Below, piece by piece: positions 23,229-44,326 of a DNA stretch of 54,480 nucleotides. Positions within the stretch are counted from its first letter, which is position 1. Each line of letters starts with the position of its first letter. The notes below the pieces were generated by a model, which saw only the letters and a list, made by a program, of their open reading frames with translations, did not search any database and was not told where the DNA came from. The position numbers were made by a program, and so were the translations under genes. The stretch comes from a phage: the NCBI GenBank assembly GCA_018865545.1, contig GCA_018865545.1_3633.2; one strand, written 5' to 3'.

Positions 23229-24485
23229 TTAGAATAACATATCTCTGCTGATTGCTTTACGAATAGCATCAATACGGGCTACTCGCACAGCTTCACCAAT
23301 CTCTTTACCCTTCTTACCTTTTTCCAGAAGGGGTTTTGTTATAGCTTTAGAATCAACTTTTGTCATAGCATCGTAGGCTTCCAACAAAATATGACCCTGA
23401 GGATAAGGTTTATGTCTAAAATCACCACCTCTTCCTTTAGCATCACAATAACACGCATCTGCAAGTGTGTAAACCTTTATTTTCTGATCAGCTTGTCCAG
23501 CAGCTTCAAATATTTTCATGATGCTTTTTGGTTTCAAACCGTTGTTACCATCTCTGGGGGAGATGGCGTGCACTTTTGTGTGATTTTCCGCAACATATTT
23601 TGCCGTGTCACGATAGATATTATAAATCTTCAACCTTTCACACAAGGATTGGATAACATCTACACCAGCTTTCTCATGACCATGAAGATTACCATTGTCC
23701 TTGTAAGTTATAGCTTTGCCAAAATCATGGCACAGCACAGCAAACTTGGTCAGTGGATCAGCCCCTAATTCATCAGCAACCCGTAACGCTAGAATTGTAT
23801 GGGTGTAAGCATCCCCTTCTGGGTGATGTTCTTTAGGTTGTTGCACACGACGTAGGGCTTCCAGTTCAGGAAGTTCGCCAATACGTCCCATATTGACAGC
23901 AAAAGATCTGAAATAACCACTCTTTAAGGCTTTCAACATTTCCTTCCATTTACGCTCGGCGCTTATTTCTGCCAAAGAGTGTCGGTTGTCATAAGCCAGT
24001 TTAAAAGTTTCTGGATGGATATGCCACTCTTCCCCAAGCTGGGCTTTAAATCTAAACAGGCGTAGAATACGTAATGGATCTTCAATAAATGCCTGCGATG
24101 TATGACGTAATGTTTTAAGTCCTAAATCAACTTGACCACCAAAAGGATCAATAATCTCACCACTGTCAACATCCATCGCCATGGAGTTGATGGTTAGATC
24201 TCTACGTGCCAAATCCTCTTCCAGTGTTACATCTGGACTAAAGCATACCTCAAATCCTTTATGGCCTTCGCCTGTTTTTCTTTCTGTGCGTGCAAGAGCG
24301 TACTCTTCTCTTGTTTCTGGGTGAAGATAAACTGGAAAAGATGCGCCAACTTGTGTGAACCCTCTTTTCAACATCTCTTCATGCGTAGCGCCAACAACAA
24401 CATAATCACGGTCTGATAATTCACGACCCAGCAATTTATCTCTTACTGCACCGCCTACTAAGTATACCTTCATTTCTTCGCCCAC
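23229..24485 (-). CDS. cca: tRNA nucleotidyltransferase (CCA-adding enzyme) with HD domain
   Basis: N-terminus MKVYLVGGAVRDKLLGRELSDRDYVVVGAT..YALARTERK closely resembles bacterial Cca; HD-like region ALLHDIGK-type (LCHDFGK). Confidence 0.85.
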   Translation of the reverse strand: MGEEMKVYLVGGAVRDKLLGRELSDRDYVVVGATHEEMLKRGFTQVGASFPVYLHPETREEYALARTERKTGEGHKGFEVCFSPDVTLEEDLARRDLTINSMAMDVDSGEIIDPFGGQVDLGLKTLRHTSQAFIEDPLRILRLFRFKAQLGEEWHIHPETFKLAYDNRHSLAEISAERKWKEMLKALKSGYFRSFAVNMGRIGELPELEALRRVQQPKEHHPEGDAYTHTILALRVADELGADPLTKFAVLCHDFGKAITYKDNGNLHGHEKAGVDVIQSLCERLKIYNIYRDTAKYVAENHTKVHAISPRDGNNGLKPKSIMKIFEAAGQADQKIKVYTLADACYCDAKGRGGDFRHKPYPQGHILLEAYDAMTKVDSKAITKPLLEKGKKGKEIGEAVRVARIDAIRKAISRDMLF

Positions 24486-42005: not shown

Positions 42006-42980
42006 TCAGATGATATTAACAAGGGTATTAGCCATCTCTTCTTTGGTGCGGATATTACGTCTGTCACGCATAACAGATCCACAACATTCGCAACGGTAAG
42101 CCTGAAATTTTGATAGATATGTTGTTCCTACCTTACCATCCATAACTGACAAATTATCAGAATTGCATCTTACGCAACGAAGTTCAACATTATCATCCGG
42201 CTCATTAAAAAGTGTAACGTTAGGATGTTTTTTCATAAAAGGCCTTACTTTAAGGTAAATACCTTCCAGTGTTGGAATATCACCAATGTTATAATATTCC
42301 ATTTCCTCAAATGCCTTAACATCTCCGTGGCAGCATCGTTTCCACAAAGAGATTCCTTCGTGGTGTCTTTTACGAGCCTCTAGTTGAAAGTAGTTACACG
42401 CAGCCTCTAAAGAGTTAGAAGGTAACGAAAAAGCATTCTTTAACTCTGCAAGAGTATCAATAACAATATATGGCGAGGGGGGGTTCATACCATGAAAAGC
42501 AAATCTTTGGTTTGCCCATCCTTTATCAAATTTAGCATTGTGTGCAATGAAAATATCACACTCATCCAAAATGTGCCACAAATCTTCCACAAGCTCTCTG
42601 TCATCATGGATATCTGTTTTAAATGTTTCGTAGTCAGGTAATTTACGACTTAATATTGCTGGATTGTCTAACCACTTCCCTGCCCATGTCAACATATATG
42701 GCTCGCTCTCTACGTGAGACGGAGAGATGTTTTCTTTAATTCTTCTAAATACCCAAGCCAACGTTGGTGCTACTTCCACATCACCCAGAAAAATTTTTGC
42801 CCCCGGCTTTTTAGTGAGGGTCTCCACAATCTGTTTTGATGCCTCTGTATTCTGAGCGTGAGCTTTAAGAACTAACCTGATATGTGACTCTTTACTTTCT
42901 TTTCCCAGATACCGACGAGCTATTTCTCTGTTGCTCAAACCTTTAGACTTTAACTCTAGAATTTCTTCTGCACTAAGCAT
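42006..42980 (-). CDS. DnaQ-like 3'-5' exonuclease with N-terminal HTH and C-terminal zinc ribbon
   Basis: FLGDVEV (Exo I-like), FIAHNAKFD (Exo II), CVRCNS..CECCGS zinc ribbon; N-terminal LSNREIARRY HTH-like. Confidence 0.45.
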   Translation of the reverse strand: MLSAEEILELKSKGLSNREIARRYLGKESKESHIRLVLKAHAQNTEASKQIVETLTKKPGAKIFLGDVEVAPTLAWVFRRIKENISPSHVESEPYMLTWAGKWLDNPAILSRKLPDYETFKTDIHDDRELVEDLWHILDECDIFIAHNAKFDKGWANQRFAFHGMNPPSPYIVIDTLAELKNAFSLPSNSLEAACNYFQLEARKRHHEGISLWKRCCHGDVKAFEEMEYYNIGDIPTLEGIYLKVRPFMKKHPNVTLFNEPDDNVELRCVRCNSDNLSVMDGKVGTTYLSKFQAYRCECCGSVMRDRRNIRTKEEMANTLVNII

Positions 42981-43192
42981 TACACCTCTCTAACAAACTC
43001 GATGATATCGTTAACAGCAAAATCACGGACATCACCCTTGTCGATATCGTATGCCCTCATTAGCCATTGAGGTTTTTTGTGATAAGGGGTCGTTCCAAAC
43101 CACAATTTTGGGTCTAAAACATTTCTGTAGCCACACTTACCTTTCCAGTTTTTATAATAAAAACGTAGAGGGTTATTCAAATCTCCAGCCAA
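42980..43192 (-). CDS. hypothetical protein
   Basis: ORF track. Confidence 0.4.
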   Translation of the reverse strand: MAGDLNNPLRFYYKNWKGKCGYRNVLDPKLWFGTTPYHKKPQWLMRAYDIDKGDVRDFAVNDIIEFVREV

Positions 43193-43472
43193 AATTCTCC
43201 TCCGTCTGCCTCACAAATTCCTTCAAATACAAGATAATACTATCCTGTTTCTTAGTTGTTGAAGGAATGTCTAATCCAAGGTCTTGTTTTGCTCTTTCGA
43301 TGATCTTTTCATTAGAGCATCTTCTTAAGAACTTTAGCATGTCATCCTTATATGAGGGATGTAAGGGGTAACTGCTAAAATCCCTCTCAAGATAATCTGC
43401 AAGGTTTCTTAATGCTGTGGACAAAGATGTTTCTGTGTGAAGTGACACATACTTCATCCAAGCCTTCAACAC
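43173..43472 (-). CDS. hypothetical protein; frame is open a further 276 nt upstream with an HNH-like motif but no canonical start
   Basis: ORF track start is GTG43472; upstream in-frame translation reads ...NPCLDHDHFEGKCRGVLSQCVNTFEGY with no ATG/GTG/TTG until the stop at 43749-43751. Confidence 0.35.
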   Translation of the reverse strand: MLKAWMKYVSLHTETSLSTALRNLADYLERDFSSYPLHPSYKDDMLKFLRRCSNEKIIERAKQDLGLDIPSTTKKQDSIILYLKEFVRQTEENFGWRFE

Positions 43473-43696
43473 GTACCCTTCGAAAGTGTTAACACACTGA
43501 CTAAGGACTCCACGGCATTTCCCTTCAAAATGGTCATGATCAAGACAAGGGTTGCGAAGTGGCTCACCTAAAACAGGATCAAGACCATTCTGGTCTAAGA
43601 TTAGATATTCTCTAAACTCAGCTATTTGCTTAGGATTTTTTAACCAGAGACTATTGTTGAGAGGGACGCTTACTGCTTTCTTCCTTGGTTTACGTT

Positions 43697-44326
43697 TTAC
43701 TTTCTGTTGTTTTTGTCTCTTTCTTGGGATAATTCCTCCAAGAATTTTTTACCTATTAAGTAAGCATCAGCATAATCTGATTTACCAGCAGCCAATGTAA
43801 TACCATCTAACCAACCAGGACAAACACAATCAACAGCCCGTATCATGTGTGATTTTTCCATCTTTACTTTACGAGATGAGTATACCTTTTTCCCAGTCTT
43901 TTTGTCAAGTCTTTCTTTAACTATTTCTCTATCTTTTTCTGGGAGTAAGTTTCTGGCAAAAGACTTTAGAGAAGTTGGTGGTATTTTATGTATATTATCA
44001 AGCCACTCAGGTGATTTATCACATAAGGCATAGACAATGCAATGGAACAAACCTGCCAAATCACGCGTCGCATTCCCTACAGATCCGAAACTCAAATCCT
44101 CCATCACATACTTATCTATCTTGTACTTATCAACTAATTCCAAGATCTTTTGAACTATGTGTCTGATTTGTTCGTAGACTGTATCGTAATAAACGACATC
44201 TTTATTTTTCTTAGACCTGCTGGAGTTAGATCCTGTTCTAATCATCTCTCTATATATGGGAACACCATGCTCCCATATAACAACAGCGCAGTGGGAGATT
44301 GACTGGTCAACCGACATCAGTCGCAT
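43697..44326 (-). CDS. RuvC-like Holliday junction resolvase (tentative)
   Basis: N-terminus MRLMSVDQSISHCAVVIWE resembles the RuvC/YqgF first strand with catalytic Asp. Confidence 0.35.
   Translation of the reverse strand: MRLMSVDQSISHCAVVIWEHGVPIYREMIRTGSNSSRSKKNKDVVYYDTVYEQIRHIVQKILELVDKYKIDKYVMEDLSFGSVGNATRDLAGLFHCIVYALCDKSPEWLDNIHKIPPTSLKSFARNLLPEKDREIVKERLDKKTGKKVYSSRKVKMEKSHMIRAVDCVCPGWLDGITLAAGKSDYADAYLIGKKFLEELSQERDKNNRK

Follow-up and report, generated by a model that had tools for sequence, protein, structure and literature searches.

Endonuclease VII genes and near-cognate start codons

Gene 49 of phage T4, which encodes the recombination endonuclease VII (gp49; PDB 1EN7, 1E7D and 2QNC; PF02945), has a normal start codon and is controlled by a hairpin at its ribosome-binding site (RBS). 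More generally, T4 limits several of its nucleases translationally via RBS hairpins (PMC2988022). A different means of lowering initiation is known from Escherichia coli, where a test of initiation from all 64 codons found 1–2% of the AUG level for AUA, AUC, AUU and CUG and where mass spectrometry detected an N-terminal Met on the product of an AUC start; the confirmed natural non-canonical starts in this organism are only those of infC and pcnB, both AUU (Hecht et al., bioRxiv 10.1101/063800). Among rV5-like phages, the orthologues rV5 gp093 (YP_002003595) and PVP-SE1 gp125 (YP_004893932), at 58–74% identity to the protein described here, are given an ATT and an ATC start, respectively, in RefSeq and carry the same GGAGG-N4-ATC signal. 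Here we describe the corresponding gene on the minus strand of a phage contig of 54,480 nt (GCA_018865545.1_3633.2, GenBank assembly GCA_018865545.1; this whole stretch is referred to as the window), which belongs to an rV5-like phage of the Vequintavirinae with TH18 as its closest relative. The gene, 43173..43730 (−), would encode an intact endonuclease VII of 185 amino acids (aa) and probably initiates at AUC 43730..43728 behind a strong Shine-Dalgarno (SD) sequence.

Given that a non-canonical start is already in RefSeq for rV5 and PVP-SE1, the window adds a further case. Compared with those two it is the cleanest one, with a stop only 6 codons upstream and no canonical codon before the active site.

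An open frame without a canonical start

Independent re-translation of 43751..43173 (−) reads 191 sense codons after a TAA stop (43751..43749); GTG 43472..43470, at codon 93, is the first ATG, GTG or TTG among them. The 92 codons above it (43473..43748, −; 276 nt) hold none of the three; they translate as …NPCLDHDHFEGKCRGVLSQCVNTFEG… and their peptide includes CLDHDHFEGKCRGVLSQCVN. This agrees with the original prediction, which had pointed out the 276 nt without a start codon, a CLDHDH…C…CVN peptide within them and an overlap with the last 17 codons of a RuvC-like gene in another frame. The overlap with that gene (43697..44326, −) amounts to 52 nt, i.e., 17 codons and 1 nt, and places endonuclease VII in the −1 frame with respect to the RuvC-like gene. 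Every gene in this part of the window lies on the minus strand. The elements of the frame are as follows.

43173..43730, minus strand: endonuclease VII coding sequence at its proposed full length, 185 aa plus stop with AUC initiation; matches to phrog_423 and T4 endonuclease VII
43470..43472, minus strand: GTG (V87), the first canonical start; the 99-aa product from here would be without active site
43479..43547, minus strand: predicted catalytic His-Me-finger core (C62, D64, H65, H67, N81, E84), inside the start-less part
43650..43727, minus strand: Lys/Arg-rich N-terminal tail PRKRQKQQKVKRKPRKKAVSVPLNNS; of its codons, the first 10 and part of the eleventh lie in the overlap with the tail of the RuvC-like gene
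43749..43751, minus strand: in-frame TAA closing the frame upstream, 6 codons above the ATC

The window has 43 stop-to-stop frames of 150 codons or more, and 6.1% of their codons are of the start type, giving P of about 0.003 for one given 92-codon stretch to hold none. Start-less internal runs of 103 and 130 codons are present elsewhere in the window. As a 5′ lead, however, 92 codons is by far the longest start-less stretch among the 43 frames, with 51 codons in second place, and it is this position rather than the run length that sets the frame apart in the window. The runner-up, 23238..23768 (+), lies antisense to a 418-aa gene (23229..24485, −) and was rejected as a gene, being antisense and of low complexity, with a translation that is not protein-like.

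A sequencing or assembly error is ruled out by identical start regions in four GenBank genomes (TH18, 18-1-2, 19-1-2 and 24-2-1; 98.6% identity) and in three metagenome contigs (99% protein identity).

Predicted endonuclease VII on both sides of GTG 43472

One full-length T4-type endonuclease VII is predicted from the start-less part together with the 99-aa 'gene' that begins at GTG 43472, because profile and PDB alignments span both sides of this codon. The phrog_423 profile ('endonuclease VII') matches at E 1.9e-36 over residues 28–176 (profile positions 3–158 of 159), and the sequence of T4 endonuclease VII (1e7d), the sole significant PDB match by sequence, at E 1.4e-4 over residues 61–162, crossing GTG 43472. 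Pfam PF02945 is matched at E 1.6e-4 with 22.0 bits, under its gathering cut-off of 23.6, and many homologues bear a precomputed PF02945 match. An AlphaFold (AF2) model made from 21 homologues has a predicted local confidence (pLDDT) of 89.4, the first 20 residues or so being less confident and the basic tail lying at 60–76. In a Foldseek comparison with the PDB, three T4 endonuclease VII entries were the sole hits with E < 0.001 (probability 1.00, 156/157 columns). The global template-modelling score of 0.32–0.39 (root-mean-square deviation of about 19 Å) compares a monomer model with one chain of a domain-swapped dimer, for which a low value might be expected.

Residues D64, H65, H67, N81 and E84 are invariant in two alignments, A1, which includes T4 gp49, and A4, with 21 sequences, and are aligned with D40, H41, H43, N62 and E65 of gp49; the active site is thus wholly within the start-less half of the protein. 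By these matches it is a predicted recombination endonuclease VII of the T4 type, that is, a junction resolvase of the His-Me-finger superfamily that would cut Holliday junctions and branched DNA. It can be aligned over the whole length of gp49, with a C-terminal helical domain in both, at about 24% identity, and differs from it by an additional N-terminal tail of about 30 Lys/Arg-rich residues. Counted with the start residue, this tail has 27 residues, 11 of them Lys or Arg and none Asp or Glu.

Another difference concerns the four-cysteine structural zinc site of T4 endonuclease VII, whose ligands we take to be C23, C26, C58 and C61. The columns aligned to these positions hold Asp/Leu and Ser/Val in the window protein, and the cysteines conserved in its subfamily are C62, C72 and C79 (43488..43547, −; A1 and A4). 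This suggests that the structural zinc site is rearranged or absent in this subfamily.

At the other end of the protein, the window reads …EENFGWRFE before the stop (43173..43200, −) and TH18 …EEKFG, though the genomes are 98.6% identical; the overlap with the next small open reading frame (ORF; TTG 43192) also differs between the two.

Purifying selection on the start-less part

The original prediction had considered a decaying homing endonuclease, and it had also allowed for a true start at GTG 43472 below a frame that is not conserved as protein. The relatives show the opposite: the upstream frame is conserved and bears the active site. Their tblastn alignments, at 73–77% identity, begin with the residue right behind the stop, and no stop or frameshift was found in the start-less part of any relative examined (about 60–77% protein identity). 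Over a gap-free stretch of 57 codons of the start-less part, downstream of the RuvC-like overlap, differences at codon positions 1, 2 and 3 number 10, 3 and 27 against PVP-SE1, 13, 1 and 33 against a Klebsiella phage and 21, 6 and 29 against rV5. Since substitutions fall mostly at third codon positions, the start-less part is under purifying selection, and a pseudogene is rejected by these counts together with the invariant catalytic residues.

A homing endonuclease of the HNH type fits no better. The gene is not sporadic, having a fixed position and fixed neighbours in all relatives, and the only HNH family matched was phrog_36860, at E 2.4e-5 versus 1.9e-36 for endonuclease VII, with no Pfam HNH family among the matches. 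What had been taken for a decaying homing enzyme is thus better described as a T4-type endonuclease VII in a core replication and recombination position, under purifying selection and intact in every relative examined.

It could still be argued that loss of the start has left the gene silent or in decay, so that only the 99-aa C-terminal piece from GTG 43472 is made. The 92 codons without a canonical start and the TH18 annotation, which begins at GTG 43472, would agree with this. So would the alignment of V87 with M68 of T4 gp49, given that T4 gene 49 has been reported to give two nested proteins, as the title of Barth et al. 1988 (cited in PMC2988022) has it. We regard such a loss as extremely improbable. 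Third-position bias without stops or frameshifts persists across lineages, all catalytic residues are invariant, GTG 43472 is not conserved as a start (it is GTA in KE23), and the absence of a canonical start is common to the whole clade, which makes it old and maintained. A nested short C-terminal product may be made in addition to the full-length protein.

A conserved Shine-Dalgarno and ATH signal

Orthologues were compared in a clade sample of about 33 distinct sequences from Vequintavirus, Seunavirus, Mydovirus and metagenomic sources (GenBank, IMG/VR and metagenome contigs). The relatives checked included PVP-SE1, 4MG, rV5, the BASEL phage EduardKellenberger, Klebsiella, Cronobacter and Raoultella phages, and IMG/VR and metagenome contigs. 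These orthologues also lack a conserved canonical N-terminal start. In the window, the seven codons from the TAA through the ATC (43748..43728) are AAA ATT CTT GGA GGA ATT ATC. Because no ATG, GTG or TTG is found among the codons between the TAA and the basic tail, initiation must be non-canonical in the window; the first canonical codon lies past the catalytic core, and a functional product from any canonical start is impossible there. Three elements of this short region matter for the argument.

43735..43739, minus strand: SD sequence GGAGG, inside the 3′ end of the RuvC-like gene; GG(A/G)GG is invariant in the roughly 33 clade members
43728..43730, minus strand: ATC, most likely initiation codon, 4 nt after GGAGG; AT(C/A) is conserved in the clade
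43731..43733, minus strand: ATT, alternative initiation codon and second choice, 1 nt after GGAGG; the RefSeq start of rV5 is the homologous ATT

All of the approximately 33 distinct clade sequences have GG(A/G)GG-N4-AT(C/A), in frame and at the same spot, and directly after AT(C/A) comes a Lys/Arg-rich stretch (IRRKRVKS…, IAKRKIRKK…, IPRKRQKQQK…). The 4 nt spacer itself is variable, with 13 different versions, and the neighbouring codons vary too; AUA takes the place of AUC in two lineages. Three further lineages from a protein database carry the same signal, and a fourth, L036, has GGAGG-N6-ATC and an in-frame stop one codon upstream. In a nucleotide alignment of 16 sequences, four G's and the AT are the only invariant columns among the 97 that follow the 'IG' motif of the RuvC-like protein. 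The A of this ATH codon (AT followed by A, C or T) is the third position of a RuvC-like Leu, Val, Ile or Ser codon or part of the RuvC-like stop, and it never changes. Since the RuvC-like tail that bears the signal is variable in length and sequence and is absent in outgroups, conservation of the signal is not explained by the needs of the RuvC-like protein.

The full GGAGG is rare as a ribosome-binding site in the window: of 25 copies on this strand, two lie 4–9 nt before an ATG.

We place the start at 43730..43728 because the ATC 4 nt after the SD is conserved in the clade and is the sole near-cognate codon in lineages L027 (…GGA GGG TTT ATC) and L036 (TAA GTA ATC), where nothing else of the kind lies between the in-frame stop and the basic tail. 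Initiation at one of two other near-cognate codons, ATT 43733..43731 or ATT 43745..43743, has some attractions: AUU is the codon of the two E. coli cases, the start that RefSeq gives to rV5 is the homologue of ATT 43733, and ATT 43745 stands 5 nt after a weak AGGT within the 'IG' codons of the RuvC-like gene, a good spacing. We nevertheless hold it to be improbable, as neither ATT is conserved. At the position of ATT 43733 the clade has nine forms (ATT, AGT, TTT, CCT, TAT, GCT, GAT, TTC and ATA), the −6 codon is ATT only in the window lineage, and L027 and L036 offer only ATC. ATT 43733 is moreover only 1 nt from the SD, and a spacing of 1 nt between SD and start is too short.

Canonical starts in the outgroups

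More distant relatives have ATG or GTG at the homologous spot, overlapping or abutting the RuvC-like stop and with the basic tail right after it.

Serratia phage ChuuTotoro: ATG, MARRYRKRTR…
Pseudoalteromonas phage H101: ATG, MRTRKRKK…
Certrevirus CB7 and relatives: GTG after GGAGG-N6, (M)AIRTGRRRR…
Many metagenomic proteins: ATG or GTG at this spot, MAKYRRSAKR…, MALPRRKSRR…, MRRCRRKSSK…

It follows that the ATH of the rV5-like clade stands where a start codon would, rather than at an arbitrary residue. The clade has a near-cognate codon near an SD that is conserved in orthologues and gives way to ATG or GTG in others, albeit at a short spacing of 4 nt. Of the possibilities named in the original prediction, a non-canonical start is the one that this combination of conserved SD, ATH codon and outgroup ATG/GTG favours.

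The remaining possibility in that prediction was a frameshift fusion, and the geometry would allow it, the endonuclease frame being exactly −1 versus the RuvC-like frame. Programmed −1 frameshifting in the A-rich overlap would yield a fusion of the RuvC-like protein and endonuclease VII, with GGAGG as a stimulator of the dnaX type. In the overlap of the window, A_AAA and A_AAG are present at −17 and +28 nt, counted from the ATC, and most Seunavirus, Mydovirus and Vequintavirus members have A_AAA 10–13 nt after the ATC, about 12 nt downstream of GGAGG. The likeness to dnaX frameshifting (SD-like stimulator, A_AAA_AAG, hairpin) extends to the shared −1 frame, the internal GGAGG and the A-rich downstream sequence, but here there is no heptamer, no hairpin and no conserved slip site. 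A scan of the allowed overlap of 22 lineages for heptamers and single-slip sites returned no common X_XXY_YYZ heptamer or slip site, and five aligned lineages (L009, L011, L029, L031 and L123) lack any slip-prone site. Lys and Arg codons in the basic tail account for the A-runs. Nor was a conserved downstream structure found, as RNAalifold on 16 sequences gave 2 pairs at −0.5 kcal/mol without covariation and the fold of the window sequence has z = −0.8. The RuvC-like stop even precedes the ATH by 2 nt in L012 and L013, about 1 nt of overlap is left in L036, and outgroup genes have an ATG or GTG of their own in the ordinary stop-start overlap. A clade-wide fusion of this kind is therefore rejected as very unlikely; low-level −1 frameshifting that makes a double-resolvase fusion in the window lineage alone is a further-out reading.

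Weighing initiation at AUC

AUC initiation would work as follows. The initiator tRNA would read AUC 43730..43728 as fMet, 4 nt downstream of a full GGAGG, with both SD and AUC lying within the final 14 codons of the RuvC-like gene upstream. The product would consist of a disordered Lys/Arg-rich tail, the His-Me-finger core and a helical C-terminal domain. With a strong SD recruiting ribosomes to a weak codon, output of this structure-specific nuclease, harmful in excess, would be low and fixed, and the weak codon would serve the same end as the RBS hairpins of T4. Both the use of AUC and this throttling purpose are what we infer from an intact gene, a conserved SD and ATH and canonical starts in outgroups. 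The parallel with infC and pcnB of E. coli is a near-cognate AUH start that lowers initiation of a dosage-sensitive gene. There, the codon is AUU, it is proven experimentally and infC is autoregulated via IF3, whereas here it is AUC or AUA and is read from sequence.

Several points weigh against this assignment. The spacing of 4 nt between SD and start is rather short next to the 6–11 nt of the window's few other GGAGG-ATG pairs. Both elements are coding sequence as well: in the endonuclease frame ATC is Ile and GGAGG is Gly-Gly, and in the RuvC-like frame they supply parts of Leu-Glu-Gly and Ser. With such dual coding, conservation by itself does not fully tell a translation signal from a peptide motif. 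In some lineages an in-frame ATG, GTG or TTG lies 1–10 codons upstream of GGAGG (GTG in L029–32, ATG in L123–125, TTG in rV5), and there a GG-x-I peptide motif is possible in principle. These upstream codons sit at differing positions, which fits the background of about 6% start-type codons. A GTG roughly 21 codons downstream (VVVPLT) is found in many Seunavirus and Mydovirus genomes but not in the window, and initiation at it could give a tail-less protein of T4-like length; upstream or downstream canonical codons could thus be used in the lineages that have them. Finally, no N-terminal sequencing, ribosome profiling, proteomic or reporter evidence for this gene was found in the literature for any phage, and its start codon is not discussed in the rV5 genome paper, the Vequintavirinae papers or the phage annotation guide.

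Two auxiliary explanations were rejected. One is a phage initiator tRNA that reads AUC: there is no tRNA in the window, and none of the 16 in the rest of the TH18 genome has a GAU anticodon. The other is an RBS-sequestering hairpin as in T4. The start region is A-rich and has no conserved RNA structure; the only candidate is a weak stem, UUCUUGG/CCAAGAA (43722..43746, −), which flanks GGAGG and AUC on both sides and is seen, unconserved and with z = −0.8, in the window lineage only.

The TH18 tRNAs form a cluster outside the window (L119 24815–30486), and two of the 16 have a CAT anticodon. One closely resembles E. coli tRNA-Ile2 (ileX) and presumably reads AUA. The other, an atypical prediction of 79 nt, has a U1-A72 acceptor end and lacks the three G-C anticodon-stem pairs typical of initiators.

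Looking at the clade as a whole, an AUC start, occasionally AUA, with a perfect GGAGG inside the resolvase gene has likely become fixed and been kept throughout the subfamily Vequintavirinae (Vequintavirus, Seunavirus, Mydovirus and unclassified relatives).

Neighbouring genes

The genes on either side of the predicted endonuclease VII gene both overlap it.

43697..44326, minus strand: RuvC-like resolvase gene, phrog_159 'RuvC-like Holliday junction resolvase' at E 3.4e-31
42980..43192, minus strand: downstream ORF of 70 aa with a TTG start, overlapping the endonuclease VII 3′ end by 20 nt; phrog_3715, function unassigned, E 3e-25

Pfam and PDB sequence searches gave no match for the RuvC-like protein. 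Its variable C-terminal tail contains the SD and the proposed start of the endonuclease VII gene, and its stop ranges from 2 nt before the ATH (L012 and L013) to +31 nt in the window. The gene order, including the downstream small ORF, is kept in relatives; rV5 and PVP-SE1 share exonuclease, small ORF, RuvC-like gene, endonuclease VII, small ORF and DnaQ-like exonuclease. From Vequintavirus to Pseudoalteromonas phage H101, the endonuclease VII gene has the same position and the same neighbours in all relatives. Two types of resolvase, RuvC-like and endonuclease VII, are thereby adjacent with overlapping ends, a pair kept from rV5-like phages to H101.

Annotation in other genomes

GenBank and RefSeq give eight different starts for this one orthologous gene: ATT, ATC, three GTGs, two TTGs and a 90-aa stump. 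Next to the RefSeq ATT of rV5 and ATC of PVP-SE1, the annotated starts are as follows.

KE23: GTG overlapping the RuvC-like TGA stop
FV3: upstream TTG
4MG: GTG at VVPLT
KB57: GTG inside the domain
EduardKellenberger: TTG inside the domain
TH18: equivalent of GTG 43472, leaving a 90-aa 'endonuclease' stump that is predicted to be catalytically dead

The start positions compared are L001 1744–2016 (TH18), L014 844 (rV5), L002 1406 (PVP-SE1), L003 1472 (KE23), L015 952, L120 319, L121 217 and L122 292. A core recombination/packaging nuclease is truncated or shifted in many rV5-like genomes because automatic gene callers ignore ATC and ATT starts.

The profile phrog_29095 ('endonuclease', 92 positions) matches only residues 110–179 of the window protein and looks assembled from truncated annotations. 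Elsewhere in TH18, outside the window (L119 18775–22488), the annotation divides the terminase large subunit into three pieces and places an 'HNH homing endonuclease' gene between them, a layout that suggests an intron, an intein or the insertion of a free-standing homing endonuclease.

Implications for rV5-like phages

If initiation at AUC holds, enterobacterial translation would include a natural AUC start that is conserved in evolution. Synthesis of the nuclease might then vary with IF3 stringency or be coupled to that of the RuvC-like protein, and might hence follow the stage of infection. These coliphages form a large group and are candidates for therapy. With a conserved AUC start on their potentially toxic nuclease, they would offer a clean natural test case, one that could show how a weak start codon combined with a strong SD sets a low level of expression.

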